Source: a virus (Duplodnaviria; Caudoviricetes). From it: a DNA stretch of 64,000 bases. The stretch covers positions 20,151 to 84,150 of the IMG/VR virus record IMGVR_UViG_3300025575_000011; one strand, given 5' to 3'. Both the position numbers and the translations under genes were made by a program. The notes below the pieces were generated by a model that searched no databases, was not told where the DNA came from, and saw only the letters and a list, made by a program, of their open reading frames with translations. Of the stretch, positions 1 through 55,092 are shown in pieces; position 1 is the first letter of the stretch; each line of letters opens with the position of its first letter.

Positions 1-90
1 TTAAATTAATACTATAAAGCGATTATTTTATTCTACAAATAGAAAGGAAATGAATTATGAAATTAAATTTCACAGTAGATATAGACAGAA

Positions 91-423
91 GTGATGACAT
101 ATGATTTACAAGAGGAACTATTAAATAAAGCGTCAGAAAAATTTATAGAGGGTATTTTAGGGAACAAGTGGGATGATGATACCTTGTATGAAAAACTAGA
201 AAAAAGAGTCATATCAAAACTAGAGATAATTATGGACGCAGACTTTAAAAATTCAGTATCTACAAAAGTCACTGATAATCTAGTTAAGAAATTTGAAAGG
301 ACTAAACAATACAAAATATTACAATCCAATGGAGAAGTGGTTGCAGATGGTATAATCAAAAGTGGATTAAAGGATTTAATTGCTGAGATTGTCAGAAGTG
401 AAATGAAAAAAGTATTTAAATAG
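91..423 (+). CDS. hypothetical phage protein
   Basis: 110 aa ORF in operon-like arrangement with the next gene; no recognised motif. Confidence 0.6.
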   Translation: MMTYDLQEELLNKASEKFIEGILGNKWDDDTLYEKLEKRVISKLEIIMDADFKNSVSTKVTDNLVKKFERTKQYKILQSNGEVVADGIIKSGLKDLIAEIVRSEMKKVFK

Positions 424-439
424 AAAGGAGGAAGATAAT

Positions 440-937
440 ATGATTATTCAAAAAACACAAGATTACCTAAATTATGTAAAAGAGCATAAACAAAATGTAA
501 AACTTGCATGGAAGGAACTTCAGGAAAAATGTGAGGGCAAAGGATTTTCATTTATTTATGATGACTGGAAGTACCATATCTTATGTTCATTAATTGAAAA
601 GCATGATGATAGTAAATTATCTAATGAAGAATTTATTCCATACAGACAGAAATTTTATCCATGTGAAGGAGAAAACATTGACAAATCTTTGTTTGGTGTA
701 GCGTGGGAGCATCACAAAAATAACAATCCTCATCATTGGGAACATTGGTTAAATCATGAACCTTCAACCCCTTATGATAAAAGTATGTACGCTGTTGAAA
801 TGGTTTGTGATTGGATGGCAATGGGTTATAAGTTTGGTGATACAGCAGAATCGTTTTATTTAAATAATAAAAATAAGATTATTTTACCTGTATCTGAAGA
901 CTATATTTTTGAAATATTTAATGCGATAAAGCAATAA
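440..937 (+). CDS. HD-like metal-dependent hydrolase (DUF5662-like phage family)
   Basis: HKQNV, HDDSK, AWEHHKNNNPHHWE, EMVCDWMAM motifs; AGGAGG RBS. Confidence 0.7.
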   Translation: MIIQKTQDYLNYVKEHKQNVKLAWKELQEKCEGKGFSFIYDDWKYHILCSLIEKHDDSKLSNEEFIPYRQKFYPCEGENIDKSLFGVAWEHHKNNNPHHWEHWLNHEPSTPYDKSMYAVEMVCDWMAMGYKFGDTAESFYLNNKNKIILPVSEDYIFEIFNAIKQ

Positions 938-988
938 TTCGAAATTAAGATTTTAAAGGATTATAATTAATATTGGGAGGGATTAACA

Positions 989-1768
989 ATGAATAGCCCT
1001 ATATCTTGGGTGGGTGGCAAAAGTAGACTTAGAAATAAAATAATTGAACTTATACCCGAACATATTTGTTACGTTGAGGTTTTTGGTGGAAGTGGTGCTG
1101 TATTATTTGGAAAGACTCCAAGTAAAGTTGAGGCGTATAATGATAGGTTAGATTACTTAGTAAATATGTTCAAAGTATTTAAAACTATGCCAGAAGAATT
1201 CTTAAAAGAAATGGACTTAATACCTGTATCAAGAACAATATTCAATGAATTTAAAAGTGATTATTACCATTTAGAAGATTTCACAGATGTAGAAAAAGCT
1301 GTTAGATTTTATTACTTAATTAAGGCAGGATTTGGATCTAGTTTACCCGGAGGCGGAGGAGGTTGTGGATTCGGAATAAGAACTGAAAGTCCATCAAGAT
1401 TGAATTTAGATAAGGTAGAAGTAAATATTCGTCAAACATTTGAAAGACTGAAAAAAGTATTTATTGAGAATTTAGATTTTGAGGATTTAATAAATAGGTA
1501 TGACAAAGAACATACTGTATTTTATTGCGATCCTCCATACATAGCCAGTAGAGAATACATAATTAAATTTACATTAGAAGATCATAAAAGACTTGCTAAT
1601 AAATTACATAATATAAAAGGCAAATTTATTTTAAGCATAAATAATCACGAATTAAGTCATGAATTATACAAGGATATGAACATTAAAGAAATAGAGCATA
1701 ATTATTCTATGAGGAAAGATAGTCACAATACCGAGTGCAAAGAGTTAATTATCACTAATTTTACTTAA
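989..1768 (+). CDS. dam: Dam-like N6-adenine DNA methyltransferase (D12 class)
   Basis: WVGGKS, YVEVFGGSGAVL (SAM binding), FYCDPPY (catalytic). Confidence 0.92.
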   Translation: MNSPISWVGGKSRLRNKIIELIPEHICYVEVFGGSGAVLFGKTPSKVEAYNDRLDYLVNMFKVFKTMPEEFLKEMDLIPVSRTIFNEFKSDYYHLEDFTDVEKAVRFYYLIKAGFGSSLPGGGGGCGFGIRTESPSRLNLDKVEVNIRQTFERLKKVFIENLDFEDLINRYDKEHTVFYCDPPYIASREYIIKFTLEDHKRLANKLHNIKGKFILSINNHELSHELYKDMNIKEIEHNYSMRKDSHNTECKELIITNFT

Positions 1769-1806
1769 TATCCAACTAATATATAATAACATTATTATCA
1801 TAAATA

Positions 1807-2007
1807 GTGATTGTAGTTCATTCACAGTATAAGGAGGATAACGAAATAGATAATGATAAACTAATTAGTGTTCTGAACTCAATTGAGTTTACATTGGTAA
1901 AACTAGATAATAGAATTACTTCACTAGAGATAAATGCGAATAAAGACTCTAATCGTCCTAAACCTATGCAGATGATTGATCAAGATGGAAATATTGTATA
2001 TTATTAA
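1807..2007 (+). CDS. small hypothetical protein
   Basis: 66 aa ORF directly after the methylase. Confidence 0.4.
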   Translation: MIVVHSQYKEDNEIDNDKLISVLNSIEFTLVKLDNRITSLEINANKDSNRPKPMQMIDQDGNIVYY

Positions 2008-2207
2008 ACCACCAAGAAATTTTGGTTTTATGGGAATATGCCTAAAATACATAAATAAGTAGTTTTTCATAAATCTAAGCAATAAACCCCTGTAACCATT
2101 GGTATGACTACGTTTGAGACACTTCAAGGCATATAAATAATTAGTCCATAAAACTTTCCCCATAAAAAAGAAGTTTTAAAGGATAAAAAAAATTAGGAGA
2201 GTGTAAG

Positions 2208-2474
2208 ATGAATAAAGTTAAGTTTGACAGAAAGTTTTTAAGAGATGATTTAGAATTGCCATACAGTGCAACAGAGAATAATATTATTGACTCAAGTAGA
2301 TGGAGTATTCAGCACAAAATTGTCTTTGCATACGAGGATAAGTTTTATCAAGCATATTACTCAAAAGGTGCTACTGAAATGCAAGATGAAAGTCCTTGGG
2401 AATATGAAGAAGAAGTTGAATGTATTGAGGTAGAACTAAAAGAAGTTAAAGTTATGCAGTGGGTGACCGTATAA
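2208..2474 (+). CDS. hypothetical phage protein (acidic)
   Basis: 88 aa ORF, AGGAG RBS. Confidence 0.7.
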   Translation: MNKVKFDRKFLRDDLELPYSATENNIIDSSRWSIQHKIVFAYEDKFYQAYYSKGATEMQDESPWEYEEEVECIEVELKEVKVMQWVTV

Positions 2475-2475
2475 T

Positions 2476-2715
2476 ATGAAGATTAAAGACATTGTGGGTA
2501 TAAATACAAAATGTGATTGCGGTTGTGATATCCCATATTTTAAAATTGTGTTTTTTCATAAGATTGGCATTTGTTATTTTAAAGAATGTACTGGTGACTG
2601 GTGGTTAAGGTTTATGTGGAGAGGTAAAAAATTTAAAGGGTGGAGACAATATTCAACGGTCAGTGGTTGGAGAAATTATAACATGTCATATGGATATGAG
2701 GAGTATTTTTTCTAG
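2476..2715 (+). CDS. hypothetical protein
   Basis: 79 aa ORF abutting the previous gene. Confidence 0.55.
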   Translation: MKIKDIVGINTKCDCGCDIPYFKIVFFHKIGICYFKECTGDWWLRFMWRGKKFKGWRQYSTVSGWRNYNMSYGYEEYFF

Positions 2716-2775
2716 AAAATAAGGTAGATTAAAAGTTCATTTTCATGGGATTAATAAGAAAGAAGGAAGATTAAA

Positions 2776-2964
2776 ATGAATATCAGTGATTTAACTGTTG
2801 GTGACATTGTGGATGCTTACATAAATGGTGAAGAAACACATAGGGTAATGATCATAGAAATTGGTGAAACATTGGTTTTTGGTATTGATTCAGATAATGA
2901 AGAGTATTCCATTGAGCCAAGAAGTGAGATTGAACGAGTTATTGCTAACATTAATGAACTGTAA
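2776..2964 (+). CDS. small hypothetical protein
   Basis: 62 aa ORF, GAAGGA RBS. Confidence 0.6.
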   Translation: MNISDLTVGDIVDAYINGEETHRVMIIEIGETLVFGIDSDNEEYSIEPRSEIERVIANINEL

Positions 2965-2981
2965 ATTAGATATAATATTAT

Positions 2982-4229: not shown

Positions 4230-5219
4230 ATGGCAGGATTTAAAAAAGCGTCAAGAGAAAAATTGTGGGTAAAAGTATTAATGGCAGGTTCGTCAGGTGC
4301 AGGAAAATCTTACACAGCATTAAGAGTAGCAAAAGGCATGGCAAAAAAGACAGGCGGTAAAGTGGCAGCCATTGATACAGAGAATGGTCGTATTAGATAC
4401 TATGCAAATGAATTTGACTTTGATGATATGCAATTAGAGTCTCCTTACAGCCCTGAGAAATACATAGAAGCAATTGAAGAAGCCGTGGATGGTGGATATA
4501 CAGTATTGATCCTTGATAGTATTTCTCATGAGTGGGAATTCTGCTTAGACGTTCACTCTAAAATGCCGGGGAATTCATACACAAACTGGTCAAAAGTTAC
4601 CCCACGACATGACAAATTCATGGAAAAGATTCTTCAAGCTCCAATTCATGTAATTGCAACTGCAAGAGGAAAAGATGAGTATGTACTTGAAGAAAAGAAT
4701 GGCAAGCAAGTTCCTAAGAAAGTAGGTTTGGGATATAAACAAAGGGATGGTGTTGAGTATAATTACACTGTAACTTTTAATATTGACCAACAATCTCATG
4801 TTGCGACTGCTACAAAGGATAACACACATATTTTTGAAGAGCGATATGACGTTCTTACTGAAAAAGATGGTGTTGCATTGTATGAGTGGGCAAATAGTGG
4901 AGATGCACCTATTGCACCAGTAAAGAATGAAGTAGTAGAAGAAAAACCTGAAAAGAAGGTAGTAGTTGAGGAAAAGAAAGTAACTAAAGTGAAGGAAGAA
5001 GAAGTTCCAGTCGAAGATGACGAACCAGACTTTGACGATGAAGTTTCTGCTTTAGACGTACAGAAGAAAATCACAACTCTAGCAAAAACATTTGAACCAA
5101 GTGTGAAGAAAGAATTTGGTGCAAAGGTTAAGAAATTATTAGTAACAACTGCTAATTATAATAAATGTGAAGATATTGAGCAATTACAAGCAATCCTGAC
5201 TATTGCGGAAGGTATGTAA
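4230..5219 (+). CDS. Sak4-like AAA recombination ATPase
   Basis: Walker A GSSGAGKS, IDTENG, LILDSISHEW; follows SSB. Confidence 0.8.
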   Translation: MAGFKKASREKLWVKVLMAGSSGAGKSYTALRVAKGMAKKTGGKVAAIDTENGRIRYYANEFDFDDMQLESPYSPEKYIEAIEEAVDGGYTVLILDSISHEWEFCLDVHSKMPGNSYTNWSKVTPRHDKFMEKILQAPIHVIATARGKDEYVLEEKNGKQVPKKVGLGYKQRDGVEYNYTVTFNIDQQSHVATATKDNTHIFEERYDVLTEKDGVALYEWANSGDAPIAPVKNEVVEEKPEKKVVVEEKKVTKVKEEEVPVEDDEPDFDDEVSALDVQKKITTLAKTFEPSVKKEFGAKVKKLLVTTANYNKCEDIEQLQAILTIAEGM

Positions 5220-9172: not shown

Positions 9173-12100
9173 ATGGATAAAAACTATGTAATGTACCACT
9201 GCCATAGCACCATGAGCAACGGTACTATGATGGATAGTTCTACAAATTTTCAGAAATATATTGATTTAGCAGTTGCTAACGGGATGAGTAGCATAGCATT
9301 CAGTGAGCACGGGAATATTTTCAACTGGATTCAAAAGAAAATGTCTTGCGATAAAGCTGGTATCAAGTATATACATGGAGAAGAGTTTTATTCTACAACT
9401 ACAATTGATGAAAAAATCAGAGAAACATTCCATATAGGTTTATATGCTAAGAATTGGGATGGAGTAAAGGAAATTAATAAATTATCTTCAAAATCTTTTA
9501 ATAAAGAAGATAACCATTTTTACTATAGGCCAAGACTCTCATTAGAAGAAATAATGAATACTTCTGACTCGATTATCGTTACAACAGCGTGTATGGCTTC
9601 AATTTTATGGCAAAGAAAAGGAGAACCAGCAGCGGAAGAATTTTTAGAGTGGATGAGTGAAAATAAACACAGATGCTTTCTAGAAGTTCAATATCATAAC
9701 AACTCTGAAGAACAAAAAGAATATAATTTATTGTTGTTAGAACACAGCAAGAAGTATGGCATTCCATTGATCTCAGGCACAGACACACATGCAGGAGATG
9801 ATGAAGATGCAGAATTAAGAAAGGTACTTCAATTATCTAAAGGAATAAAGTTTCCAGAGGAAGAAGAGTTTGACTTAACTTTTAAAACATATGGTGAATT
9901 AGTGAAGGAATTTAAAAATCAAAAGTGCTTACCAGAGAAAGTTTACCTAGAGGCAATTAATAATACTAATGTTTTTGCTGATATGGTAGAAAGTTTTGAA
10001 CTGGATTTTTCTTATAAGTACCCTAAAATATATGAAACTCCTGAGTCAGAATTAAAAAAGAGAGTCAATACTGGTGTTCTTGGCAGAAAATTAAATTCAT
10101 GGGAAGATAAAGATAAGAAAAAACAATATTATGCTAGAATTAAAGAAGAATTTGCTGTTTTTGACCAACTTAAAATGTTGGATTATATTCTATTATTAGA
10201 CGATATTATTAACTTTTGTAAGGAAAACAATATCAGTGTTTCTCCAAGAGGGTCATGCAATGGAAGCTTAATCTTATGGGCATTAGGAATTACAGATATT
10301 GATAGTATTAGATTTGATCTTCCATTTTTTAGATTCTGCAACCCTGAACGTGTATCATTGGGCGATGTTGATATAGACATGGCAAGTATTAAGAGGCCAC
10401 TAGTAAAAGACTTCCTTTATACATATCCAAAGATCCAAGGGAGTGCAATCATTACATTCCAAACATACGCACTCAGAGGGGCTATTAAGGGCATAGGAAG
10501 AGGATTGAATATTCCACTGTCAGAAGTAGAATCTATCTCAGCAGACATTGACGAGATAGATGAGGAAGATGATAAAGGAGAAAGCAAAAAGATTACAACT
10601 TTCCACAATAAAGAGAAATGGGAAGCTAAGTACCCTAAATTATTAACTATGGCTTACAGATGCCTTGGTGTAATTGAGAATGTATCTACTCATGCTTGTG
10701 GCTTTGTTGCTACAGACAGGAATATTGATGAGGAAATTGGCACATTTAAGTCAGATAAGTGTCCTTGGGTTATTTCGCAAAACAATATGAAATGCATTGA
10801 CGCTGTAAACTTTGTAAAAATGGACTTACTTGTTGTTGATAATGTTCAAATTGTTGAGGACACTTGCAGATTGGCAGAAGTACCAATTCTAGATAATAAT
10901 GAAATTGATTTTGAGGATATTGATGTTTGGAATGAGATGTTAATATCAGGTCTTGGAATATTCCAGTTTGAGAAGACAGGATTTAGACATTTAAAACATA
11001 CATTAGAAAACTTTGGAGAGTTTCAGAAACAAGTCAAAGGCATAACTAGATTAGATGTAATGACTGCACTAAATGGTATTATCAGACCAGCCGGGGATTC
11101 TATTCGTGATGATTTTATTCTAGGTAAGCCTTTTAGAAGTGGAATGAAAGAAATTGATGATTCTTTAGGAGAAACCCTATCATATTGTATTTATCAAGAG
11201 CAGATCATGATGTGGCTTTATAATTTCTGTGGATATACTATGGCCCAAAGCGATACGGTTAGGCGTGGTATTGCTAAGAAATATGGTACAGAGAAATTAA
11301 TACCTGAGATTGAAAAGGGGTTTATGGACTTTTGTACTAAAACATATCCACAATATGATGAAGAATATTTAAAAATTGTGCTTGCAAAATTTATTCAGGT
11401 TATTCTCGATGCCAGTTTTTATGGATTCTCGAAAAATCACTCAAATCCATATTCAATTTTAGGGTTTAAGTGTGCATATTTAAGGCATTACTATCCATTG
11501 GAGTTTTTAACAGTTCAATTTAATATTAATGATGGAAGGATAGAAAAAACATCTAAGATTAATGATTATATGAATAAATTTACTGACATAAAAGTAAAAT
11601 CAATTAAATTTAGAAAATCTAAATCAGAATATGCTTGCGATAAAAGTACAAATATTATTTACAAAGGTATTAAGTCAGTAAAATATCTGAGTGAACAGGT
11701 AGCTTTAGAATTACACGAACTAGGTAAAAAGGAGTATGATTCGTTTCTTGACTTAATAATGGAGATTACAGAAAATAGTTGTGTCAATTCAAGACAAATG
11801 GCAATTCTCATTAAACTTAATTTCTTTGAAGAATTTGGTGGCAATAAATATTTGATGAATGTTTACGAAGCGTTTTCTTCCAAATACAAAAAGACTTATG
11901 TTGATAAAACAAAAGTAAAAAGAATTGAGGAAATAAAAACATTGATATCTGATATGGAAGATGTGGCTTTTAATATTAAAGAGCAACTTGAGTATGAGAA
12001 GGAATTTCTAGGATTTTTACAGTCTACATTTGATATGGACGAAACATTTGTTTATATATCTGATCTTGACTTAAAATATTCACCAAAAGTAATGTGTTAT

Positions 12101-12867: not shown

Positions 12868-12896
12868 TTGACTTAATATAACCCATATGCTATACT
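12868..12896 (+). promoter_or_regulatory. sigma-A-type promoter
   Basis: TTGACT-17 nt-TATACT. Confidence 0.8.
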
Positions 12897-13078
12897 AATA
12901 TACATAGGGAGTGGTTAACCGACAAAACAAAATTCTGAACGAAAAGAGGGTGCATTATCATGTGAATTACATTATTCCAATATCTCCCACCTCTGGAACA
13001 TAGGCGTAGCAAGGGTTTCAAAAACCCAAAATAGCTTAAAATCTGGCTTTTATGGGATTGCATAAAAAGGAGAGCATA

Positions 13079-13168: not shown

Positions 13169-13200
13169 ATAATAAATATAAATGAAAGAAGGAATTATTA

Positions 13201-17511: not shown

Positions 17512-17629
17512 ACAATATAATAAGTAAAGACACTATATATAGTTACAAAATACATAAATAATACTACATATAGTGTCTAAAACTCAATAGAATAAAACGA
17601 AAATTTCAAAGGAATAAAGGAGAGATGAT

Positions 17630-18730
17630 ATGAAAAATACAATATTTTTGCCTAAGACTATCAAAGTAGGATATCAATCACGTACCGATACATATACAGG
17701 ACAGTTAGCTTATGTCATTTATATTGACCAGAAAGGAGTTCTAAGAAAAGAAACATCTTGGAATAGTTGGCGAGATAATAAAATTGAACCACAAGATTTT
17801 TCAAATGAACCAACTTCGGGATTTGTTCTAAATAAAAAGGTTGGTGATTATGTTTCAGATTGGAATCATAGGCAAGCATATGTAAGAGTTTATGATCCTA
17901 GAAACTTTGAGTTTGAGATTACCATTGAAAATTTACTCTATATCCTTGAGAATGCTAGTTCAATTAAAGGTAAAGGACTTGAAGGTAATTTTGTCTATGG
18001 TTGGGATGGTAAGGATTTGTTATTGATTCCAACAGAATCTCCAGATTATAAGGAAATTACCGAATATAGTGAAATAATATTCCAAAAGAAATATGTTAAA
18101 GCTAAAGAATTAATATTAGGGGCTACATACAAAACTAAATCAAATGAAGAATGGATTTATATGGGTAGGTTTGATTACCATACCACTAAATATGACAAAG
18201 TTCTATCTAAGATACAAAGTAATTCTTGGTATTCCCCTTCATATGATAGCGTCATAGTAAATGTCAATAAGGGAAAGCATCATTTCTTTGCTAGAGAAAC
18301 TATAGATTATAAGGATAATAAATATTTAAGTATCTTAACTATTAAATCACTTGGAGAGAGGTTTATAGATACAGTATCATCTGATTGCGTAGAAAACTAT
18401 GCAGAGTTATTTGAAAAACTTGAATGCAAAACCGATTATTCACCATACGATGAAAACAAAGATGAATATATAAGGTATACATTGGAGGAATTTAATAGTT
18501 CTATAAATAAAAGCAGATGGATTCATTATTATGATAATCTAAAGAATAAATATGAAGTATATTTTGGACGCGATGACATATTTCATTATCGGAAAATTGA
18601 TGCAAATAATCATTATGGTGATGAGAAATCAGTTCAAGGAACATTAGAAGAAATATATAACTTAATTAAACCAATGTACAAAAACGAGTATTTAGAAAAT
18701 AATAAATTATATAGAGAGGGGAATAAATAA
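17630..18730 (+). CDS. conserved-looking hypothetical phage protein
   Basis: 366 aa ORF with strong RBS. Confidence 0.7.
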   Translation: MKNTIFLPKTIKVGYQSRTDTYTGQLAYVIYIDQKGVLRKETSWNSWRDNKIEPQDFSNEPTSGFVLNKKVGDYVSDWNHRQAYVRVYDPRNFEFEITIENLLYILENASSIKGKGLEGNFVYGWDGKDLLLIPTESPDYKEITEYSEIIFQKKYVKAKELILGATYKTKSNEEWIYMGRFDYHTTKYDKVLSKIQSNSWYSPSYDSVIVNVNKGKHHFFARETIDYKDNKYLSILTIKSLGERFIDTVSSDCVENYAELFEKLECKTDYSPYDENKDEYIRYTLEEFNSSINKSRWIHYYDNLKNKYEVYFGRDDIFHYRKIDANNHYGDEKSVQGTLEEIYNLIKPMYKNEYLENNKLYREGNK

Positions 18731-18731
18731 T

Positions 18732-19139
18732 ATGAAAACTGAAACAAACGATCAAAAGATTATGGAACTGAAAAAACAAATCGAGGTAAAGAAAAACAAA
18801 GTAGGAAAATCCCAAAAGTTTAGCCCAATTACTAATTGTTCAATTGAGGTTGATGGAGAGCGTTCTAATATTCAAGTATTGACAAAAGAAAAGTTAATCT
18901 CATTAATGGTAAAACTAAATTCATATTCAATTTCTGCCAAAGACTTAGAAGTAGAATATATTATCAGTGGTTACAATGTAGTGGATTGGATTCAAGATAT
19001 TAAGTCAAAACTTGATTTTGTCAGTCGAAAGGAAGAAGAAAATAAACTAAAATTCATGGAATCCAAGTTACATGAATTGCTTTCTAATGAAAAGAAGGTA
19101 GAACTTGAAATTGATGAAATTGCATCGTTTTTAAAGTAA
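18732..19139 (+). CDS. hypothetical coiled-coil protein
   Basis: 135 aa ORF coupled to the previous gene. Confidence 0.7.
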   Translation: MKTETNDQKIMELKKQIEVKKNKVGKSQKFSPITNCSIEVDGERSNIQVLTKEKLISLMVKLNSYSISAKDLEVEYIISGYNVVDWIQDIKSKLDFVSRKEEENKLKFMESKLHELLSNEKKVELEIDEIASFLK

Positions 19140-19141
19140 AT

Positions 19142-19335
19142 CCCCATGAAATTGATGTTTTAACCTAGTGTAAAATTTAAGAAATTGTAAATATCAGAAA
19201 ATTAGATGTTAAACCTCTGAAAGCGTTGGTGTGTAAGGGTTTCAGAGGTTAGGTTGTTACATTTGCCAAAAGAGAAGGAATACAGTTATTTAGGGTAAAT
19301 CATCAATAATACCATGAAATCAATCTTTTATCCTA
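19142..19335. repeat. composite element: site-hairpin-site, left of the methylase
   Basis: 10-6-10 sites at both ends; AACCTCTGAAA/TTTCAGAGGTT stem. Confidence 0.75.
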
Positions 19336-19366
19336 TTGGAATAAATAATAAAAAGGTGGAATATTA

Positions 19367-20332
19367 TTGTTAGAATTAAATAATATATATAATGAAGATT
19401 GTATATATGGAATGAAGAGAATTGATGCCGAATCTATTGATTTAATTATTACAGATCCTCCATACTTAATTAATTATCAGAGTGCAATGAGGACTGATAG
19501 ATTTGATAAGATTGAAGGAGATAAAGGTACTAAATCGGATTATAATTTAATTACTAATTCGTTAAATGAACTGCATAGAGTATTAAAGGAAGGTTCGCAT
19601 ATTTATATGTTTTGCAGTTGGCATAATATTGATTTCTTCAAGCAAGAATTTCAAAAACATTTTGAATTAAAGAATATATTAATATGGAAGAAGAAGGGTG
19701 GGTTTATAGGCGATTTAGAAACACAATATGGTGTTGATTATGAGTTTATATTATTTGGATTTAAAAAATGGGAATATTATGATGTAGATAAAGATTGTAA
19801 TTCATACCCCTTAGTAAGAGGCTATTTTAAAAAATTACAAAAGCATATAGGTTTAAAATTAAAAGAAATAAACACACATTTAGGGCATAGAAAAGCGGAA
19901 CATTGTTTTTACTGGAAAACAACGCAATGGGATATGCCGACTAAAGAAACATATAATGAATTAATAAGAACCTTCAACATTGATAACTGGAATGAATTCA
20001 AAGAATTTAATAGCTTGAAGGTCGAATATGATAAATTAAAATATATTTATAATAAAAGAAAACCTTTAAATGGGAAAAGAATATCTGGCATAATTGAAAC
20101 ATCTAAAGTGCCCAATAAGGAATATATTCACCCTACTCAAAAACCAGAAGAGATAATTAACATACTTATAGAAAAATCAAGCATAGAAAACGACATAATT
20201 CTTGATCCCTTTATAGGTTCTGGTACGACTGCAATAGCATCAATGAACACTAATCGTCAATACATAGGTTTTGAATTAGATAATACATATTATGATTTAG
20301 CACAAAAAAGAATAGAAGAACATATCAATTAA
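19367..20332 (+). CDS. beta-class N4/N6 DNA methyltransferase with internal insertion
   Basis: ITDPPY, HPTQKP, LDPFIGSGTT; about 100 aa helical insert. Confidence 0.92.
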   Translation: MLELNNIYNEDCIYGMKRIDAESIDLIITDPPYLINYQSAMRTDRFDKIEGDKGTKSDYNLITNSLNELHRVLKEGSHIYMFCSWHNIDFFKQEFQKHFELKNILIWKKKGGFIGDLETQYGVDYEFILFGFKKWEYYDVDKDCNSYPLVRGYFKKLQKHIGLKLKEINTHLGHRKAEHCFYWKTTQWDMPTKETYNELIRTFNIDNWNEFKEFNSLKVEYDKLKYIYNKRKPLNGKRISGIIETSKVPNKEYIHPTQKPEEIINILIEKSSIENDIILDPFIGSGTTAIASMNTNRQYIGFELDNTYYDLAQKRIEEHIN

Positions 20333-20359
20333 GGTAATTACATAAAATATATAAAATAT

Positions 20360-20551
20360 TACCATAAAATCGAATTTTCATCGTCCTCAATAATTAAGAA
20401 TCTAAAATATTAGAAAATCAGGTATTAAACATCTGAAACCCTTACACACCAACGGTTACAGAGGTTGGTTTCACCATTTATCCAAAAACACAGTAAAACA
20501 GCCATTTTTCCCTAAAATACCCTAATAGGATAAAAAACACATTTCGAAGGG
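20360..20551. repeat. composite element: site-hairpin-site, right of the methylase
   Basis: direct-repeat flanks similar to the left copy; loop inverted. Confidence 0.75.
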
Positions 20552-20569
20552 TTATAAAGGAGAACTAAA

Positions 20570-24272: not shown

Positions 24273-24318
24273 ATAGGTAGTGGTAAGTATGATTATTTTG
24301 AGAGGAGGGTTAGAATTT

Positions 24319-25776
24319 ATGTTGGTTACTAAAGAAGTTGAAGTGGGATTATCCTCAATAAATACTAAATACTATGAAAAATTAGGATATAAGATACCAA
24401 GGAGAATAGATAAATATGGAATAAATTGTGTTAAAAGAGGAACAAAAATTAGAGTAAAAACGCAAGATTTACAAGATAGGTGTAATTCGTTAGTTGATGT
24501 TATATGTGATGGATGTGAAAAAACATTAAATATAAAATGGAGTGACTATAAAAGAAGTGTAAAAGAAAATGGAGAATGTTATTGCTTTAAGTGTGGTAAT
24601 GCAGGGCATAAGAAATGGGTTAGTTTCTATGAGTGGTGTTACCTTAATTTATCTAAAGAAGATGCTGATAGGATATTATCTCGTTGGGACTATGATTTAA
24701 ATGGAATAAACCCTATTGATGTTACCTATAGTTCTAAAGGGCTAAATGGAAAAGGATATTGGTTTAAATGTTTGACATATCATGAGCATGGATCAGAGTT
24801 AAGAGACATTAGTAATTTTACAAGTGGTGAAGTGGGGAGTATTTGTTGCACCAAATGTAACAAAATTGCAGTCACCAATCCTGATTTGGTAGATTTTTTT
24901 GTTGATAAGGAAGATGTATTAAAATATTCAAGTGGCTCCGAAAAATCCACTTTGATTAGATGCCCTGAATGTGAATTTCAAAATAAAAGAATTATTAAAA
25001 ATTTTATACGATATGGAATTAATTGTCCTAAATGTTCCGACGGAGTACCATATCCTGAAAAATTTATGTTTAGCGTTCTATGTCAACTAGATATAATATT
25101 TAAAACTCAGTTATCTAAATCTACTTTTGAATGGTGTGGTAAATACCAGTATGATAACTTTATTTCAGAAATAAATTGCATAATCGAGACTCATGGGTTA
25201 CAGCATTATGAAGAGAATGCTAATTGGAAAATGTCATTAGATAAAACGCAAGAGAATGATAAATTAAAGGAACAAAATGCTAAAGATAATAACATAGGGA
25301 ATTATATAGTTTTAGATTGCAGGTATTCTCAACTAGAATGGATTAAAAATAGTATAATGCACAGCGAGATTCCACGGTTATTAAACTTCAAAGAAGAAGA
25401 TATTAATTGGCTACAATGCTCTGAATATGCTTGCAAAAACATGGTCAAGGAGGCATGTAATTTGTGGAATTCTGGAATCAATAAAACAATAATAATAGCA
25501 GATAAATTAAGGATTAGTAGAGCAACTGTATTAAGATACTTAAAACAAGGTGCAGAACTAAAGTGGTGCAAATATATTAATCACAGTAAAGTAATATGCC
25601 TAACTACAAATGAAATTTTCAATACACAAACAGAAGCGTCTAGAAAATATAATATGTATAGTAGCAGTGATATTGCTCAATGTTGCAGACACAATAGACC
25701 ATTTTCAGGTAAACATCCAGACACGGGAGAGAAACTTGTGTGGATGTATTATGGAGAGTATCTATCTATAACTTAA
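24319..25776 (+). CDS. free-standing Zn-ribbon / Vsr-like PD-(D/E)XK endonuclease with C-terminal NUMOD-like HTH
   Basis: multiple CxxC, YDNFI..CIIETHGLQHY, VICLTTNEIF...CC...WMY; paralog of 52263..53744. Confidence 0.7.
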   Translation: MLVTKEVEVGLSSINTKYYEKLGYKIPRRIDKYGINCVKRGTKIRVKTQDLQDRCNSLVDVICDGCEKTLNIKWSDYKRSVKENGECYCFKCGNAGHKKWVSFYEWCYLNLSKEDADRILSRWDYDLNGINPIDVTYSSKGLNGKGYWFKCLTYHEHGSELRDISNFTSGEVGSICCTKCNKIAVTNPDLVDFFVDKEDVLKYSSGSEKSTLIRCPECEFQNKRIIKNFIRYGINCPKCSDGVPYPEKFMFSVLCQLDIIFKTQLSKSTFEWCGKYQYDNFISEINCIIETHGLQHYEENANWKMSLDKTQENDKLKEQNAKDNNIGNYIVLDCRYSQLEWIKNSIMHSEIPRLLNFKEEDINWLQCSEYACKNMVKEACNLWNSGINKTIIIADKLRISRATVLRYLKQGAELKWCKYINHSKVICLTTNEIFNTQTEASRKYNMYSSSDIAQCCRHNRPFSGKHPDTGEKLVWMYYGEYLSIT

Positions 25777-25838: not shown

Positions 25839-26735
25839 TTAAGCGTAGAATTTATCATAAACGTCTCTCCTATTTTGGCATCTCTTTGGTCTCTTTTGAT
25901 CTTGAGAGATGCTTATGTTTTTTGATGGATACAAGATTACTAAACCACTTTTCTGTTGTCTAATTGACGATACTACTAATCCAAATTCACTCTTCTTGAT
26001 TTTATTATGTAATATTTTTTCATTAACCATCTTCAGTGCAAAGTCTAATTGACTTGGGGTTGCCTGTTCTTGCTTCATAATATTTTGATACTGTTTACCT
26101 CTGTTACTATCAATGTCAATCCCATTGCTCCCCAATATAAAAATTGTGGATAAAGTTTCATCATCGTCTCTAATATTTTCAGTTTTACATACAGAGTTTA
26201 ATATTAAAGGGATGGTTTCTTCTTTGTGCGTCACCGTTGGCATGTCTCTTTTTAAAGAAATACTAAACTTCTTATCCCCTTCTATCTCCCCTGCCCTCTT
26301 AATAGGAAGGAGAGAGTATAAATTGCTTGTAGTATACCTCTGTAAAGACACTAAACACGATGCCCTTACCAATTCCCCTATAAATCTCTGAATGCTTCTT
26401 ACAGAGCATCGTAGTGCCTTTGATAAGTACAACTGACTAGGAAAAATTGATTTCTTCCTACCATACATCATGCTTTTAACTTTCATATAAAGCACTATGG
26501 CCCCATTGGATAAGTCAAACTCCTCTGCAATTTCCCATATCTCATTATTGAAAATAGTAAAGTTACCTTCATATTGATCTAAACTTGCCACAATATTTTC
26601 CTCATCTCTAGCATTTGGGTATATTGAACTAGACATTAAGAAAATACATGTTATACTAAAAGAACAGAGAAACCCCCTTGTATTAGTAAACAAATATTTT
26701 TCATGTCCAGCCCATGATTTGTGATCGGCAGCCAA
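25839..26735 (-). CDS. HTH replication-initiator-like protein (start uncertain)
   Basis: NFTIF..LSNGAIVLY..FPSQLYLSKALRCSVRSIQRFIGEL; adjacent to the repeat array and par genes. Confidence 0.65.
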   Translation of the reverse strand: MAADHKSWAGHEKYLFTNTRGFLCSFSITCIFLMSSSIYPNARDEENIVASLDQYEGNFTIFNNEIWEIAEEFDLSNGAIVLYMKVKSMMYGRKKSIFPSQLYLSKALRCSVRSIQRFIGELVRASCLVSLQRYTTSNLYSLLPIKRAGEIEGDKKFSISLKRDMPTVTHKEETIPLILNSVCKTENIRDDDETLSTIFILGSNGIDIDSNRGKQYQNIMKQEQATPSQLDFALKMVNEKILHNKIKKSEFGLVVSSIRQQKSGLVILYPSKNISISQDQKRPKRCQNRRDVYDKFYA

Positions 26736-26895: not shown

Positions 26896-27335
26896 ATAGA
26901 CTCATATCCTCATATGCGTACAAGAGTATGTGTACATGAATGGATATGGGTCTATATGTTTATGTTCATATGCGTTTATAATTATATGAGTATAAACATT
27001 TATGTACTTGAAGCCATAAGAGTATGAGCGCATATGTACTTGTACATTTAAAATCATATACACCTAAACATATATACTCATATGAATCTAAACTCATAAG
27101 TACATGTGCGTATAAACATCTAAACCCATAGACGGATAAACATATATGTACTTATGCAATTATGTTTATATACTCATATGGGTTTATGATTACATACATC
27201 TATGGGTTTATGAATATATAATCATATGTGTTTGAATGTATAAGCACATAGACATATATGCGTATAAATACATATGAGCATAAAAATATAGATGTTCAAG
27301 TACATAAATACATAAACATCTATGGGTATATGTGT
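26896..27335. repeat. array of 55 in-register degenerate octamers (centromere- or iteron-like)
   Basis: 8-bp register kept throughout, e.g. ATATGCGT, ATAAACAT, CTATGGGT, ATATGTAC. Confidence 0.9.
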
Positions 27336-33859: not shown

Positions 33860-34213
33860 ATGGCTGGATTCTTTAGTGACATAACTGTAAATCCTTTTAT
33901 TCCGAATCCCGCTTTTGCTAAACCAGAGGAAGCTAATTTTATAGAGAAAGGAATTTCTAATGGAATAGAAAAGGGGTTGGGGAACGTTGGTGACAAGGTT
34001 CTCCAAGCAGGAAAAGTTAAGACAGAATCAATGATGCACAATCTACCTGAAATTGCGACTCTAGCATTGGTTATGTATCTCATATATTTAGGGTATATGT
34101 CTTTCATTAGGAAGGATGGACGCAAAAGAGAAATTGATTTCTCAAGAATGTATGTAGTTTTTATGGTCTATATTGTCTTCAAGTTATTCTGGAAGGTAGT
34201 ATTAAAAATCTAG
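33860..34213 (+). CDS. membrane protein with two C-terminal TMs
   Basis: 117 aa; GAGGTG RBS. Confidence 0.6.
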   Translation: MAGFFSDITVNPFIPNPAFAKPEEANFIEKGISNGIEKGLGNVGDKVLQAGKVKTESMMHNLPEIATLALVMYLIYLGYMSFIRKDGRKREIDFSRMYVVFMVYIVFKLFWKVVLKI

Positions 34214-44347: not shown

Positions 44348-44619
44348 ATTTGTGCCAAATTAAGACACACAAAAAACACCTCATTAAGAAGTGCTTTTAA
44401 TCTGCCGTAATTTAATTAATTAGAAAGAGAGGACTATAAAATCCTCTCCAAAACACTAAATTTATGAAATTTTATTACTCATTCCTAAAAAGTACAACTC
44501 CCTATTCATGCACCTTTCAGGGTTTCAATTTAGAACCATTCTAATTAATAATCCATTAAACTTTCAATTTTAAATGGTAATATATTACCTATATTCCAAA
44601 ATTCATGTTTAGTTGAGAA

Positions 44620-44924: not shown

Positions 44925-47393
44925 TTAATCATCCTCCTTGACAATATACTTATTAATCATCTCCATAAAATTATATTTATCAAGTATCTCTGTAATTATA
45001 TATTTACTACTCCTATGTGTTATTATCAATTGTGAGCGATTTAATATCTTCAATCCAACATAAGTACGAATGTTAATAGGTAAATTTGCGGATATTTCAA
45101 TAAAACCATACTCATTAACCGTTAGATTAATACTTGTTTGTATATTAATTGGTAAACTTGTAGAAATCTCAATAAAACCTTTTTCGTTAACTGTTAGGTT
45201 AACTGACGTTTGTATACTAATAGGAGCATTCGCAGATAATTCTAATACTGTTACTGCATTAATACTTATTCCAACAATTACAGGTATACTTATAGCAGAT
45301 ATCGCAGAAAGTTGAATAGCACCTCCTGTATTAATTGCTAAACTGATGGAGACTGGCATATTTAAGGTAGAATTTGTACTCATTTGCAATGGAGTTACAA
45401 TTGCTTCATTAATTGTTAAACCAATACTTATATCTGGAGAAATTGGTGCAAATGTGTCCAATTCTTTTAGATATCCAACCATATCAAAATTAATTTGTGT
45501 AATATCCGTGGGGACTATATGAGGAACTAATTCTATAGACGTTTCAATTATGTTGAATACGTGAATATCAACGTACATATTAGATGTTGATATAATATTC
45601 ATAGCCCCGCCCCATGGGACGTACATTGAAAAACTAACAGAACTTGTTGTAGTTGACTTGGTGGCTGTCCCTGCTATCTCCATAGGAAGCCTTGCAAGTG
45701 ATAGTCCATGGTAATCCATATACTGATAGGCTTTTTGACCCCCACCAGTACCTAAAGCCTTATTTCCATACTGGAAGGTAGATGTTAGCATTCCAGCAGG
45801 AGGATCTGTTGGTAGATCCGCTCTACGAGTTCTCACTATGATTCCATACTTATTACAAAATGCAACATAGTCTTCCCACGTTGCGGTAAATACAGCAGAA
45901 CCACTATCTCCGGAATCTCCCATTGGCATACCTACACCCTCAAAGTTCAACGTCGGAGTCGTTATCCAGTCTTGGAACTCTGGATCTTCATACGTATATG
46001 GATTAATAAACTCGTTGGCATAAAAGTACAAAGTATCTGTTGTATATATCATATTAGTAGTGACTTTGTAGTTACTGTCATTTACACTATAAGCTGTAAG
46101 ATATGATGCGTCTTGAACTATGCCGAAAGTAGTGCCTGTTGTTCGACCGGTCTTCATTAGAACCATACCTTCATAAAAAGGCCCATCATATAACCCTTGG
46201 TTCCTATACTGCCGCCCTACTTGAAAACCCCCTGCAAAGGTTGTGAAACGTGAAGGACTTTCTAAATTAATATCAGAGTTACAGTATGCACCCTCACCTA
46301 GGCCTAAACCATTAATAGCTGATGCATATATATATTCTAACTTTAAAGGTACGTCTGGATAGAATGTCACTAAAGCAGAGTCTAAACTTGGTGCACTTGT
46401 ATTCGTAATAGGGTACCAATCCGCAACATTACCCGTTATACACGCCTGGTCATAACCTGGGCCATCCTTCGCGGGCATTTCAACTGTCTCGCCTTCAATA
46501 TGGGCAATAATTTGAACTACCCCAGCTGGAATATCTGGAACATAGGCTTCTACTACAGCAATTAATTCAAACATATCCGCAAACGTAGTGGGATTAACTG
46601 GCTGTGTAGGGTCATGAGTATAAGTCCATGACTTAATTTTAGCCTTTACACCGTTAAACAGAATGTCACTGTCTCCACGATGATTTCCACCTACATGAAT
46701 CTTGACAAGAACTATTTCACCAGCTTTTGCAGACGTTGGACTTATAGAGTCAATATGAACTGTACCATTTGGTTGTCCATAGTCAGCGTGAGCATAGTAA
46801 TCTGTTCTCCACAGGCGATCCATTATAGGAGTGAAAGAGGATTCTAAGTGATACCTTCTCCACCTAAAATATAGGTGAGGATCATCTAGCATCCTGTCGT
46901 CAAAATCTATACCATCAAAAGGTACTCCTCCTGGTACTACTGTGAAGTCCACAGAGTTATTAGAGTTCTGACTCTTAAAGGTCTGATTAAAATAACCTAA
47001 AACGTGGTGATTAGAGTGGCCTACGTTCCTTTGTAAAGTGTTAGACCAAAAGAAAGCTCCTAATGTTCCTCCCCCACCCCAATAAGTACGGCACAGACTT
47101 CTTCCAGGAACTATTGGTCTCTGGTAAGTTAGTGAGATATTATAGTCAGGAGAGTTAGCTACTGCTGATTGGTTTGAATCGCTGCCAACGCACTCAACTC
47201 CGAATCCTTCTAGTTCCGTAGGTATAAGGAGTAGTGTCTCAGGAGTAATGTCATGTGCATACACAACTATGGTCTGATCGAATACTCTAATACCGATACT
47301 ATTAACGCCTTCGATAGTCATAATTCCAGCGGCGTACTTATCCTTGACGGCTACAATTTTGCCGTACAGTTCTTGAACTTCTTCGTTGGTCAT
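44925..47393 (-). CDS. large Nal1-like trypsin-family serine protease with IPT-like insert and C-terminal 24-aa repeats
   Basis: GGGTLG..SNHHVL (His), LDSALV (Asp), KTGRTTGTT, GDSGDSGSAV (Ser). Confidence 0.75.
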   Translation of the reverse strand: MTNEEVQELYGKIVAVKDKYAAGIMTIEGVNSIGIRVFDQTIVVYAHDITPETLLLIPTELEGFGVECVGSDSNQSAVANSPDYNISLTYQRPIVPGRSLCRTYWGGGGTLGAFFWSNTLQRNVGHSNHHVLGYFNQTFKSQNSNNSVDFTVVPGGVPFDGIDFDDRMLDDPHLYFRWRRYHLESSFTPIMDRLWRTDYYAHADYGQPNGTVHIDSISPTSAKAGEIVLVKIHVGGNHRGDSDILFNGVKAKIKSWTYTHDPTQPVNPTTFADMFELIAVVEAYVPDIPAGVVQIIAHIEGETVEMPAKDGPGYDQACITGNVADWYPITNTSAPSLDSALVTFYPDVPLKLEYIYASAINGLGLGEGAYCNSDINLESPSRFTTFAGGFQVGRQYRNQGLYDGPFYEGMVLMKTGRTTGTTFGIVQDASYLTAYSVNDSNYKVTTNMIYTTDTLYFYANEFINPYTYEDPEFQDWITTPTLNFEGVGMPMGDSGDSGSAVFTATWEDYVAFCNKYGIIVRTRRADLPTDPPAGMLTSTFQYGNKALGTGGGQKAYQYMDYHGLSLARLPMEIAGTATKSTTTSSVSFSMYVPWGGAMNIISTSNMYVDIHVFNIIETSIELVPHIVPTDITQINFDMVGYLKELDTFAPISPDISIGLTINEAIVTPLQMSTNSTLNMPVSISLAINTGGAIQLSAISAISIPVIVGISINAVTVLELSANAPISIQTSVNLTVNEKGFIEISTSLPINIQTSINLTVNEYGFIEISANLPINIRTYVGLKILNRSQLIITHRSSKYIITEILDKYNFMEMINKYIVKEDD

Positions 47394-49626: not shown

Positions 49627-49955
49627 TTTATATAAACCTCCTTTATTATTTATTGTTTAATTAAATGAGAATTAATTTTTACATTGGCAACACCACCTTT
49701 GCCGATTAATTAAATTTAGGTATTGCAAAAGGAGTTATATTCCTATAACTCCTAAATATTACCTTCCATTTACTCACGCATACTTCCATATCCTCCGTTT
49801 CTCTAGCTCATAAATAGCATGAAATTTATATTTTAAAGGGATTGGATTATTTTATTTGATTTTGAAATCTAGGACACTAAAACCAGATACTTTTAATAAT
49901 TCAAAATACAAATCTATGCACAAATTTTGACATTATTATTTCCCCTTTGATATTG

Positions 49956-51168: not shown

Positions 51169-51191
51169 ATTTTGATTGATTATCTTTTTTC

Positions 51192-52262: not shown

Positions 52263-53744
52263 TTATTTAACCTCCGTATTGTTTATTATATATTCGTCAT
52301 AATACATCCAAGTTAACTTCTCGCTAGTCTCGGGATGTTTCCCAGCATATTTTTTTACATTCGTACAACAAGCAGATATACTACTAGCACTTTTTAAATT
52401 ATATTGTTTTGTTGCATTAATTATGGAATTAAATATTTCCCCTGTAGTTAAACAAATTATTTTTTTATTATTTTTAATATTACTTTCTTTTTTGGAGTCG
52501 TAATCACACCAATCCAATTTAGCACCTTGTTTCAAATATTTTACAGCCGTAGTTCTATCTATTTTTAATTCCAATGCTATTTTATTTGTGTTATTAATTC
52601 CATTTTTCCATAAATTACATGCAACATTAACTAGACTAGAACAAGAAATTTCATGACATTTTAGCCAGTCTATATCTGATTCTTTAAAGTTTAAAAGAGT
52701 AGGTAGCTCGCTTTTCATTATGCTAGTTTTAATCCACTCTAAATTAGAAATTCTACAATCTATAACTATATAATTTTTAATACCATTCTCTTTAGCAAGC
52801 TGTTCTTTATTTTTGTCATTCTCTTGGGTTTTCTTTAATGAATCCCAATTCCCATTAGGTTCTATGTAATGCTGTTCCCCGTGAGTTTCAATGACACAAT
52901 ATATATTATTTATGTAGAAATCATATTTATAGTTACTACACCAATCAAAGCTAGTTTTAGTTAATTGTGTTTTGAAATTTGATTTTAGTTGCTCTAAAAA
53001 ATTAAATGTAAATTTCTCTGGGTAGCTTATTCCATCTCCACATCTAGAACAATTAAAATGACTTAATACAAAATCGTAAATTGATTTTTCTTTTTCATAA
53101 CCACATTCAGGACATTTAGTAAGAATTTTTTTATTTGACCCTTTTGAAAATTTGTATGCATCATCTTTATTAGCTAAATATTTTACTATTTCAGGGTGCG
53201 TTATTGATAATGAATTACATTGGTTGCAGTCAATACTTCTATTATAACCTTTTGTAAAACTTGCAATGTTCTTTTGCTCTGATTCATGTTCTGGATGTTC
53301 TAAACATTTAAACCAATAACCTTTTCTATTAAACCCCTCCGAGCCAAGTCCTATGTTTTTAGGGTTTATAACTTCGCCATTTTTATCAATATTTAAATTA
53401 AAATCCCAACGAAGCATTATTATATCTGCTATTTCTTTGGGAAGATTGGCATAGCACCATTCATAAAATGATACCCATTTTTTATAACCATTACGAGCAC
53501 ATTTTTGGCAATAGTATTCTCCGTTTTCCTGCGCACATCTTTTATAATCATTCCATATAATGTTTTTTAATTCTTTTCTGCAACCATCACATTGAATATT
53601 TACCAGTATATTAGAACCATCGGATAGATCTTTTACATTTACCTCAAATTCGTTACCTATCTTAGTAAACAGATACCCCTTATTTATATACCATGTTTTG
53701 TTTCTTATTTGCCATTTTATAATTATACTTTTGGTTTCCAACAT
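52263..53744 (-). CDS. free-standing Zn-ribbon / Vsr-like endonuclease (paralog of 24319..25776)
   Basis: YDFYI..VIETHGEQHY, CxxC ribbons, IICLTTGEIF; likely start 53744. Confidence 0.7.
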   Translation of the reverse strand: MLETKSIIIKWQIRNKTWYINKGYLFTKIGNEFEVNVKDLSDGSNILVNIQCDGCRKELKNIIWNDYKRCAQENGEYYCQKCARNGYKKWVSFYEWCYANLPKEIADIIMLRWDFNLNIDKNGEVINPKNIGLGSEGFNRKGYWFKCLEHPEHESEQKNIASFTKGYNRSIDCNQCNSLSITHPEIVKYLANKDDAYKFSKGSNKKILTKCPECGYEKEKSIYDFVLSHFNCSRCGDGISYPEKFTFNFLEQLKSNFKTQLTKTSFDWCSNYKYDFYINNIYCVIETHGEQHYIEPNGNWDSLKKTQENDKNKEQLAKENGIKNYIVIDCRISNLEWIKTSIMKSELPTLLNFKESDIDWLKCHEISCSSLVNVACNLWKNGINNTNKIALELKIDRTTAVKYLKQGAKLDWCDYDSKKESNIKNNKKIICLTTGEIFNSIINATKQYNLKSASSISACCTNVKKYAGKHPETSEKLTWMYYDEYIINNTEVK

Positions 53745-53780
53745 ATTTAAACAACTCCTCATTAAATAACCGTTTGTATT

Positions 53781-53996
53781 TCACTCAGTAATTAATTTAC
53801 CTGCCATATAGTTCATAATTTTTTCTTGCAGTTCCTTACTGTCATTAAAAATAAACACTTTTCTTCGAGACTTTGTATCTGATTTAAGATGACGTAAGAC
53901 AAAACCGTTCATCATTAGAAATCCTGCCATCCTTAAAGAATAACAATTGTAATCTGGGTTCATTAAAACCATTCCTTTTTTCCTTAAATTGGGCAA
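53781..53996 (-). CDS. DUF5659-like small phage protein
   Basis: YSLRMAGFLMMNGF...KVFIFNDS.EL. Confidence 0.6.
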   Translation of the reverse strand: MPNLRKKGMVLMNPDYNCYSLRMAGFLMMNGFVLRHLKSDTKSRRKVFIFNDSKELQEKIMNYMAGKLITE

Positions 53997-54041
53997 ATAA
54001 AAAAGAGGTATAAGAACCTCTTTTTTAACAAGAATGTTATA

Positions 54042-54767
54042 TTATCTCAACGTCCAAGCATCAGAGCTATATTTTGTGAAGTAATTGTACGGAAGCAAAA
54101 AATAGCCCTCGATTCCCCAGTCTTTTGACCAAGAATTCCTACAAATTAACATCTTTATCGAATCATCATACCCTACACAGCAGACAGCGTGACCTCCAAG
54201 ATTCTTTTCCGCACGTTTTGGTAAAGGGATAATCCCAGTCTTAGAAACCGTGTCACTCTCAAAACTCTCGAAAACACTAATGCCCAATACAACCAAATAA
54301 TTTTCAGCAATACTCCTCTTTAAATCCTTTAAACTAGTTATTCTCTGATAAGAAACAGAACGATAACTACCTGCATCAATATTAGCTTGAGCAGAAGGTG
54401 CTTCTGTAAATTTACTAATATCATAAACACAATCTGATTCAGGACATACACCATTTTTCACAGCTATTTTTATTCCATCACGCAGACTAGCCCCTGCATC
54501 TATATTTATTGAATTCTCCAACTCGCGTTCCTTGTAATATAAATACAAACGTGAAAGAGGAATAAATTTATTAACTTTTAACAAGTTAAATTCCATCGAA
54601 CCTGAGACAATAGCATTCGCTGTGCAAGATCCTAGTTGCCCCTGATCAACAATAGGAGAACATAAACTTCTCAAATCAACCTTCGTAGGTAATTTAATAG
54701 GTGGTCTTGCAAATAAATGGTCATTGACATCAACCTTATCTTTTTTTAATAAATATTTTCTTGTCAT
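54042..54767 (-). CDS. papain-like C1 cysteine peptidase
   Basis: DQGQLGSCTANA (Cys), GGHAV (His), CRNSWSKDWG (Asn). Confidence 0.92.
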   Translation of the reverse strand: MTRKYLLKKDKVDVNDHLFARPPIKLPTKVDLRSLCSPIVDQGQLGSCTANAIVSGSMEFNLLKVNKFIPLSRLYLYYKERELENSINIDAGASLRDGIKIAVKNGVCPESDCVYDISKFTEAPSAQANIDAGSYRSVSYQRITSLKDLKRSIAENYLVVLGISVFESFESDTVSKTGIIPLPKRAEKNLGGHAVCCVGYDDSIKMLICRNSWSKDWGIEGYFLLPYNYFTKYSSDAWTLR

Positions 54768-55092
54768 GTATAAGTAACCTCCTTATGTAAATTTGTGTAA
54801 GTCAATAATAAAAGGAGATAGTATTAAATTATCTAAAATACTACCTCACTCATGCTCCTTTATGCTTCCATATGCTCCATATTCCTAGCTCAATAATCCC
54901 ATGAAAACGTAATTTCCTAGGGTAAGATTAAATCCAAGTTATGCATCAAATTAAAAACATTATATAGATTAAATTATTTTATAATTCATAGAAAATATTA
55001 AGCTTTTATACTCTCTATAAATTTATTAGTTTCTTAAAGAAGGACAAAATAAAAGAACTATATTTCAAATCCATTATTTCGTCCTATTGTAA

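Follow-up and report, generated by a model that had tools for sequence, protein, structure and literature searches.

The window analysed here comprises bases 20151-84150 (64,000 nucleotides) of the 84,150-bp viral record IMGVR_UViG_3300025575_000011, which has 31% G+C and an estimated completeness of 51% (CheckV). It encodes a DnaE-type polymerase, a helicase, a primase-like protein and a PD-(D/E)XK nuclease, besides an anaerobic ribonucleotide reductase, a dUTPase, several DNA methylases and several HNH endonucleases. A Rep-like protein, ParA-type and second partition genes, and lysis and tail genes are also encoded. The 20 kb preceding the window carry DndB-like, MrpR-family, Cro/C1-type and DNA ligase genes as well as a long series of small genes, and YonG_N and similar SPbeta-type genes are present in relatives. 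The record represents a large temperate phage, or phage-plasmid, of SPbeta-like type, whose host is a low-G+C Firmicute. Contigs 100% identical to portions of it (L063-L067) occur in at least five metagenome assemblies (JGI, ENA), and an identical ligase protein lies on two more short Logan contigs. Since identical contigs recur across assemblies, the phage is widespread and sequence-stable. Scattered between its genes are short two-armed dyads, hereafter called junction sites, which are the subject of the present study. A reading of the window made earlier from its letters alone (the sequence-only reading) had listed 13 of them and proposed that they delimit shuffled gene cassettes.

All 13 sequences were found at the positions given for them (offset 0 to 2 nt), but the list was incomplete. 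A weight matrix built from these sites, iterated and scanned over the whole record, returned 31 sites, where Markov controls gave 3.7 on average. Fifteen of them fall within the window, and the other 16 lie in the 20 kb upstream of it, where site density is highest. The motif AAA-N6-TTTYAWRGG matched 14 times in the record, compared with 0.56 times (maximum 4) in 100 dinucleotide shuffles, and this 25-fold enrichment was confined to a gap of 6 bp. The matrix matches proposed as a check thus stood well above controls in the full record. Each site spans 28 bp, with two inverted 11-bp arms around a 6-bp centre and conserved positions reaching 11 nt to each side. The arms read ATCCC or ATAGN followed by WTRAAA, which had been taken for two arm types. 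With intermediate forms present, they instead make up a single degenerate half-site family, AT(C/A)(C/G)N-WTRAAA; a TAG-type arm never occurs on both sides of a site, which is not significant. Twenty-nine of the 31 sites are intergenic, and most start at, or a few bases from, a stop codon and end 11 to 30 nt before a Shine-Dalgarno-bearing start codon. As had been read from the window, both orientations occur; a site may face either way relative to the gene, and along the genome the orientations are mixed, without strict alternation.

For comparison, six relatives were taken from IMG/VR (G1, G2 and G6-G9; ligase identity 69 to 89% in G6-G9), and seven further loci were obtained via ligase homologues in other assemblies. 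Megablast against phage and plasmid collections gave no close relatives, a metagenome scan with the ligase gave nothing beyond one 33% relative, and a single-protein scan with the MrpR-like protein gave no matches. The motif is present in all relatives, with one common half-site consensus, which was seen in 9 genomes. A genome-specific arm consensus co-evolving with the repressor was considered and rejected, as the arms vary around one consensus. The sites of the window are listed in Table 1.

Table 1. Junction sites and weaker matrix matches in the window, with their genomic setting and their counterparts in relatives.
Feature	Position	Setting	Counterparts and remarks
Junction site, centre CGATTA	9..36	Overlaps stop codon of upstream plus-strand ORF	Same centre in G8; upstream open frame ~291 codons, gene call used 240 aa
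Junction site	934..961	Boundary of DUF5662 gene and D12 adenine methylase gene; covers stop of 440-937, 27 nt before ATG 989	
Junction site	2009..2036	Opens conserved ~175-bp non-coding module	Homologous site in G1 and G2, centre differing at 1/6 positions
Junction site, centre AAGAAG	2157..2184	Closes ~175-bp module; 23 nt before ATG 2208	Centre also in G8 and G9, with unrelated neighbours
Junction site	2724..2751	24 nt before ATG 2776	Top matrix match, 28.1 bits
Weak matrix match	10255..10282	Within DnaE-type polymerase gene	Probably chance
Junction site	13031..13058	3' of conserved stem-loop-like element	Site with another centre at equivalent position in G8 and G9
Junction site, centre CGAAAA	17587..17614	15 nt before ATG 17630	Centre also in G8 and G9, both flanks unrelated; homology blocks with G1 and G2 begin at right edge of site
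Junction site	19141..19168	Right after stop of 18732-19139	First site of left inverted module beside methylase gene
Junction site	19309..19336	30 nt before methylase TTG start 19367	Second site of left module
Junction site	20359..20386	26 nt past methylase stop	First site of right inverted module
Junction site	20525..20552	17 nt before 55-codon ORF	Second site of right module
Weak matrix match	44551..44578	Gap in minus-strand gene block	16.1 bits; uncertain member
Junction site	49814..49841	5' of small minus-strand gene	Left flank homologous to flanks of differently centred sites in G6, G8 and L077
Junction site	54896..54923	5' of small minus-strand gene	Leader similar to that of gene at 49814

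The main new result of our study concerns the centres, which are unique within genomes yet shared, co-oriented and collinear between genomes. Among 116 sites of seven genomes, 34 pairs had identical centres where 2.6 were expected, and none of the 34 lay within one genome. In the same set, matches at five of the six positions showed no excess (47 versus 41 expected). With the seven loci added (14 genomes), 70 identical-centre pairs had matching orientations relative to the genome backbone and 0 had opposite ones; 28 of the 70 involve the added loci. The order of shared centres was concordant in 75 comparisons and discordant in 0, over all genome pairs sharing at least two centres. The arms of same-centre pairs were little more alike than those of random pairs (14.2/22 versus 13.1/22 identical positions), and most same-centre pairs had flanks without detectable homology. 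In the phage studied here, 9 of the 31 sites have a centre in common with a relative; three of the nine lie in the window, at 9-36, 2157-2184 and 17587-17614. The earlier remark that every spacer differs was thus correct and reflects a non-random pattern. We read the centres as behaving like position addresses, which appear to be kept while arms and neighbouring genes turn over.

The site-bearing region is hypervariable, single small genes being present, absent or reordered among relatives. When blastn blocks between this phage and its relatives were examined, 0 of the 31 sites were crossed, compared with 10 of 57 other gaps of at least 21 nt. Variable slots after the ligase gene in relatives (L070, L072, L073, L075 and L077) hold Macro, PARP, ADP-ribosylglycohydrolase, DndB, GmrSD_N, Gad2-like, PemK and acetyltransferase genes, a content that suggests counter-defence cargo.

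The same pattern was observed in SPbeta and phi3T, genetically tractable phages of Bacillus subtilis that readily hybridise. In SPbeta, the inner dyad WTRAAA-N6-TTTYAW was counted 34 times (controls: 3.1), and here too the dyads begin at stop codons; the early regions hold 29 dyads in SPbeta and 26 in phi3T. Nineteen identical centres are co-oriented between the two phages and 1 is opposite, their order agrees by 171 to 0, and no centre appears twice in either genome. Both flanks are homologous at 6 of the 19 shared-centre dyads, one flank at 8, and neither at 5, which stand as islands. At the 8 one-flank dyads the adjacent 60 nt are identical (within blocks of 96.6 to 100% identity) and the other flank is unrelated; hence, homology switches inside the dyad core. 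Furthermore, 10 of the 52 blastn breakpoints between the two phages fall no more than 25 bp from the centre of a dyad, where 1.0 was expected, and breakpoints occur in half of the gaps that contain a dyad, compared with 21% of the others.

What kind of element the sites are is indicated by their arms. An RNA hairpin or processing site was rejected, as the arms do not covary (the R/Y position is equal in 9/27), and many sites would form just three A-U pairs as a hairpin. This lack of arm-to-arm covariation points to a double-stranded protein site. Scans for tRNAs and Rfam families found none. Sigma-70 promoters and intrinsic terminators were likewise rejected, since scans gave no excess over shuffled sequence; the regions were scanned as a whole, and co-location with the sites was judged only by eye. 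Moreover, a 28-bp site followed by 11 to 30 nt to the start codon leaves no space for a -10 box and a transcription start site.

Other elements were observed in intergenic DNA. Three near-identical sigma-A-type promoters (TTGACT, 17 nt, TATACT) lie at 12868-12896 of the window and at 4453-4481 and 12676-12704 of L001 (outside the window), which also holds TTGACT, 17 nt, TATAAT at 17800-17828. They are located in larger intergenic gaps, are probably real early promoters, and none of them overlaps a junction site. A conserved stem-loop-like element occurs 10 to 60 nt upstream of some junction sites, with a stem of approximately CTGTAACCC paired with GGGTTACAG and a AAGGGTTT core. It was seen at about 2100-2150 and 12990-13030 of the window, at 2400 and 26650 in G8, at 13170, 16260 and 36240 in G9, at 68780 in G1 and at 34030 in G2. 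It lacks a T-run and so is not an obvious terminator. The DNA methylase gene at 19367-20332 stands between two homologous non-coding modules of about 190 bp in inverted orientation, the whole occupying 19141-20552. Each module has a junction site at either end and, in its middle, a hairpin whose stem measures 11 bp; complementarity between the arms at 19212-19250 and 20428-20466 is 92%.

We tentatively favour, at somewhat less than even chances, the reading that the sites are protein-recognised, address-tagged crossover points at which gene modules are exchanged between related genomes. The arms would be recognised by a DNA-binding protein, and crossover at the centre would be the selected function. 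A module would consist of an arm, a ribosome-binding site, an open reading frame, a stop codon and a second arm, and the partners would be related genomes, such as a co-infecting phage, a resident prophage or a phage-plasmid. Exchange would take place inside the identical core, AAA-centre-TTT, with crossover restricted to sites of the same centre. Such a rule would keep gene order and avoid deletions within a genome while allowing the genes on either side to be replaced. The catalyst could be a tyrosine recombinase that depends on spacer homology, for which a conserved YomM-like protein is a candidate. Alternatively, phage homologous recombination could act on the short core, by means of an AAA_24-domain ATPase (of a family annotated Sak4-like in SPbeta) and nucleases. 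An enzyme that depends on centre identity and homologous recombination on an identical stretch of 12 to 18 bp would be expected to leave the same footprints.

The sequence-only reading had placed a tyrosine recombinase outside the window. A gene of that fold does lie upstream, at L001:2305-3321; its product appears to be a repressor homologue, and a likely active enzyme was found only in a relative. The 338-aa product matches PF22822, and its profile matches MrpR (8a0a; E = 6e-10), 9rd5 (2.5e-17), which we take to be the phi3T SroF structure, and also YopR; the relatives carry PF22822 and PF22823. When a published table of catalytic residues was aligned by eye to this protein, on the basis of the HMMER alignment, the first Arg and the Tyr were seen to be kept, and the Lys, His-II, Arg-II and His/Trp-III to be missing. 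From these features, the product is a probable MrpR/YopR/SroF-family repressor homologue that looks non-catalytic. This gene, which falls below the Pfam cut-off, is the only Phage_integrase-like match in the record, where no resolvase was found. In relative G006 (92% complete), a 364-aa open reading frame on the minus strand (L042:14786-15880, corresponding to G006 114786-115880) has the motifs Arg, His-x-x-Lys, His and Tyr and shares 52% identity with SPbeta YomM, a protein for which we know of no assigned function. The YomM-like frame is far better conserved between G006 and SPbeta than the MrpR-like repressor. Judged by these motifs, the YomM-like protein is likely an active tyrosine recombinase and a candidate for acting at the sites.

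Several observations weigh against crossover points as the function of the sites. The record's sole recombinase-fold protein lacks most catalytic residues, and no YomM-like gene was found in this 51%-complete record. In the assembled sequences, neither a recombination product nor a circle or variant was observed, and the five other assemblies of the phage, all 100% identical, show no rearrangement. Homologous genes can adjoin different centres, and the three-gene insertion that distinguishes G0 and G7 has no site at its left junction. In G9, an additional gene is flanked by ribosome-binding sequences that are repeated, and some homology stops at a start codon or ribosome-binding site, outside the sites. 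Between SPbeta and phi3T, 42 of the 52 breakpoints lie away from dyads, and dyad-bearing gaps are only about twice as likely as other gaps to hold one. Besides, any selection to remain compatible with relatives is a second-order effect, perhaps too weak to keep the centres constant. The proposal that the sites delimit shuffled cassettes therefore stands in part: the sites do mark boundaries of accessory genes that are gained, lost or permuted, and no homology block crosses them, but the same gene may adjoin different centres and most SPbeta/phi3T breakpoints fall elsewhere. The suggested check, whether breakpoints fall inside the spacer, gave a similarly divided answer, with 8 switches inside a dyad core on the one side and those 42 breakpoints on the other.

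The main rival, which we consider possible but less probable, sees the sites as operators or roadblocks for a dimeric phage regulator (MrpR/SroF-like or of the Cro/C1 helix-turn-helix type), through which early accessory genes would be silenced while the phage exists as a prophage or plasmid, in the manner of stoperators or SPBRE boxes. Junctions at the sites would then be a passive by-product of short conserved islands, with which the only about twofold breakpoint enrichment over other gaps agrees. The MrpR-family and XRE-type (Cro/C1) genes are adjacent just upstream of the site-rich region and are kept so in relatives, sites lie directly 5' of nearly every small early gene, and in G8 and G9 one site follows a near-consensus sigma-A promoter by about 10 to 20 nt. 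In SPbeta and phi3T the master repressor is MrpR/SroF, a protein with an integrase fold, and its box (SPBRE/SroF box) is asymmetric, rich in A-tracts and read by a monomer, with about 10 bound sites in SPbeta (PMC10516654; bioRxiv 10.1101/2025.11.27.690993). Our sites resemble it in their length of 26 to 28 bp (26 bp for the SroF box), in their scatter over the early region and in the MrpR-family gene beside them. However, the dyads are symmetric, are threefold more numerous in SPbeta and lie mostly distant from ChAP-seq targets. Specifically, the inner dyad is enriched in SPbeta, yet only 3 of its 29 dyads lie upstream of an MrpR ChAP-seq target gene at a distance of 250 bp or less. In view of these results from SPbeta, MrpR operators are not preferred as the best reading of the dyads. 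The phi3T SroF box has no match with fewer than 7 mismatches in the record, although the specificity of the distant MrpR homologue may differ and it may still bind the sites here. Above all, an operator accounts for the placement and the arms of the sites and not for centres that are unique within genomes, conserved, co-oriented and collinear while the arms drift.

The strict form of the model in the sequence-only reading, in which single-gene cassettes would move as circles through the action of an Xer-type pair (from host or phage) or of an integron-like system, is improbable in our view. The 11-6-11 geometry fits it, as do small co-oriented genes with sites between them, a gene order permuted among relatives and the methylase gene flanked by inverted two-site modules. 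Xer dif sites and the pdif sites of Acinetobacter plasmids share with ours this layout, the variable centres and the bracketing of accessory modules. In pdif sites, however, the XerC and XerD arms are distinct and modules are bounded by oppositely oriented sites, whereas here a single degenerate arm family is found in mixed orientation without strict alternation. Since all centres differ within a genome, excision of neighbours by a homology-dependent tyrosine recombinase would be blocked, and the G0/G7 insertion described above speaks against this model too. As for integrons, the record yielded no IntI-type integrase with attI and cassette promoter and no long attC-type structure; attC sites are 57 to 141 bp long with a fixed orientation at the cassette 3' end, in contrast to sites of 28 bp in both orientations. 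That the sites are functionless remnants of shared ancestry in intergenic DNA, palindromic by chance, would suit the AT-rich genome and the A/T-rich arms, but it is hardly credible, being already contradicted by the 25-fold enrichment, the strict 6-bp spacing, the one half-site consensus in 9 genomes and the conservation of the inner dyad as far as SPbeta.

In the literature searched we found no description of these dyads. The nearest published analogue is the promoter-early stem-loop (PeSL) cassettes of T4-type phages, which combine a sigma-70 promoter with a terminator hairpin; any two copies recombine by homology, even within a genome, giving mini-circles (Arbiol et al. 2010, PMC2839356). 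PeSLs, like the junction sites, are short stretches of non-coding DNA that recur and bound small non-essential genes in hyperplastic early regions, and at both, insertions, deletions and replacements between relatives occur. Unlike PeSLs, the junction sites have no promoter or hairpin and combine protein-type dyad arms with a unique centre conserved by map position. Stoperators, known from cluster A mycobacteriophages, are asymmetric and 13 bp long, follow the direction of transcription and are recognised by an immunity repressor that binds as a monomer; they have no variable centre. They too represent a single site repeated tens of times, in the short gaps between genes all along the operons, in contrast to the two arms, both orientations and variable centre seen here.

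Returning to exchange at address-tagged crossover points, its counterpart is found in the laboratory. Heterospecific lox and FRT sites, of which only those with identical centres are compatible, are put to engineered use with Cre or Flp for recombinase-mediated cassette exchange. Like the junction sites, they have inverted arms around a centre of 6 to 8 bp, with centres that are unique within a molecule and identical between partners, as was found here. Differing centres in one molecule prevent internal deletion and permit position-specific exchange. The difference is that Cre/Flp exchange is a laboratory system, and for the junction sites there is only a candidate recombinase; in the literature searched, no natural counterpart was found described. 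SPbeta-like phages might carry such a natural system, in which a phage recombinase-fold protein (YomM-like or other) would swap accessory and anti-defence modules between related genomes at matching addresses along ordered heterospecific 11-6-11 sites, leaving gene order intact. We consider this specific version rather unlikely.

A few further features of the window lie apart from the sites. The Rep-like gene (25839-26735, minus strand) and the ParA-type operon flank a stretch free of open reading frames (26897-27330), in which short repeats, both direct and inverted, are crowded; the stretch resembles an array of iterons or a centromere array. Two HNH/homing-endonuclease-like paralogues of about 500 aa lie on opposite strands, at 24280-25776 (plus) and 52263-53762 (minus), with 71% identity over 335 nt. 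An 822-aa open reading frame at 44925-47393 (minus) belongs to no PHROG family. Compared by length only, it is near SPbeta YonO, the phage RNA polymerase of 839 aa.

A long-standing question about phage mosaicism is how its junctions come to fall so frequently right at the edges of genes. It is commonly answered by illegitimate recombination at random with later selection, or by homologous exchange at linkers that genomes share. The linker described here is internally structured, as if for position-specific exchange, with generic arms and a unique conserved centre. Since the pattern is present in SPbeta and phi3T, the idea is directly testable. The variable modules hold methylases and, in relatives, Macro, PARP, DndB-like, GmrSD-like and Gad2-like genes; thus, the sites may organise the turnover of counter-defence genes.

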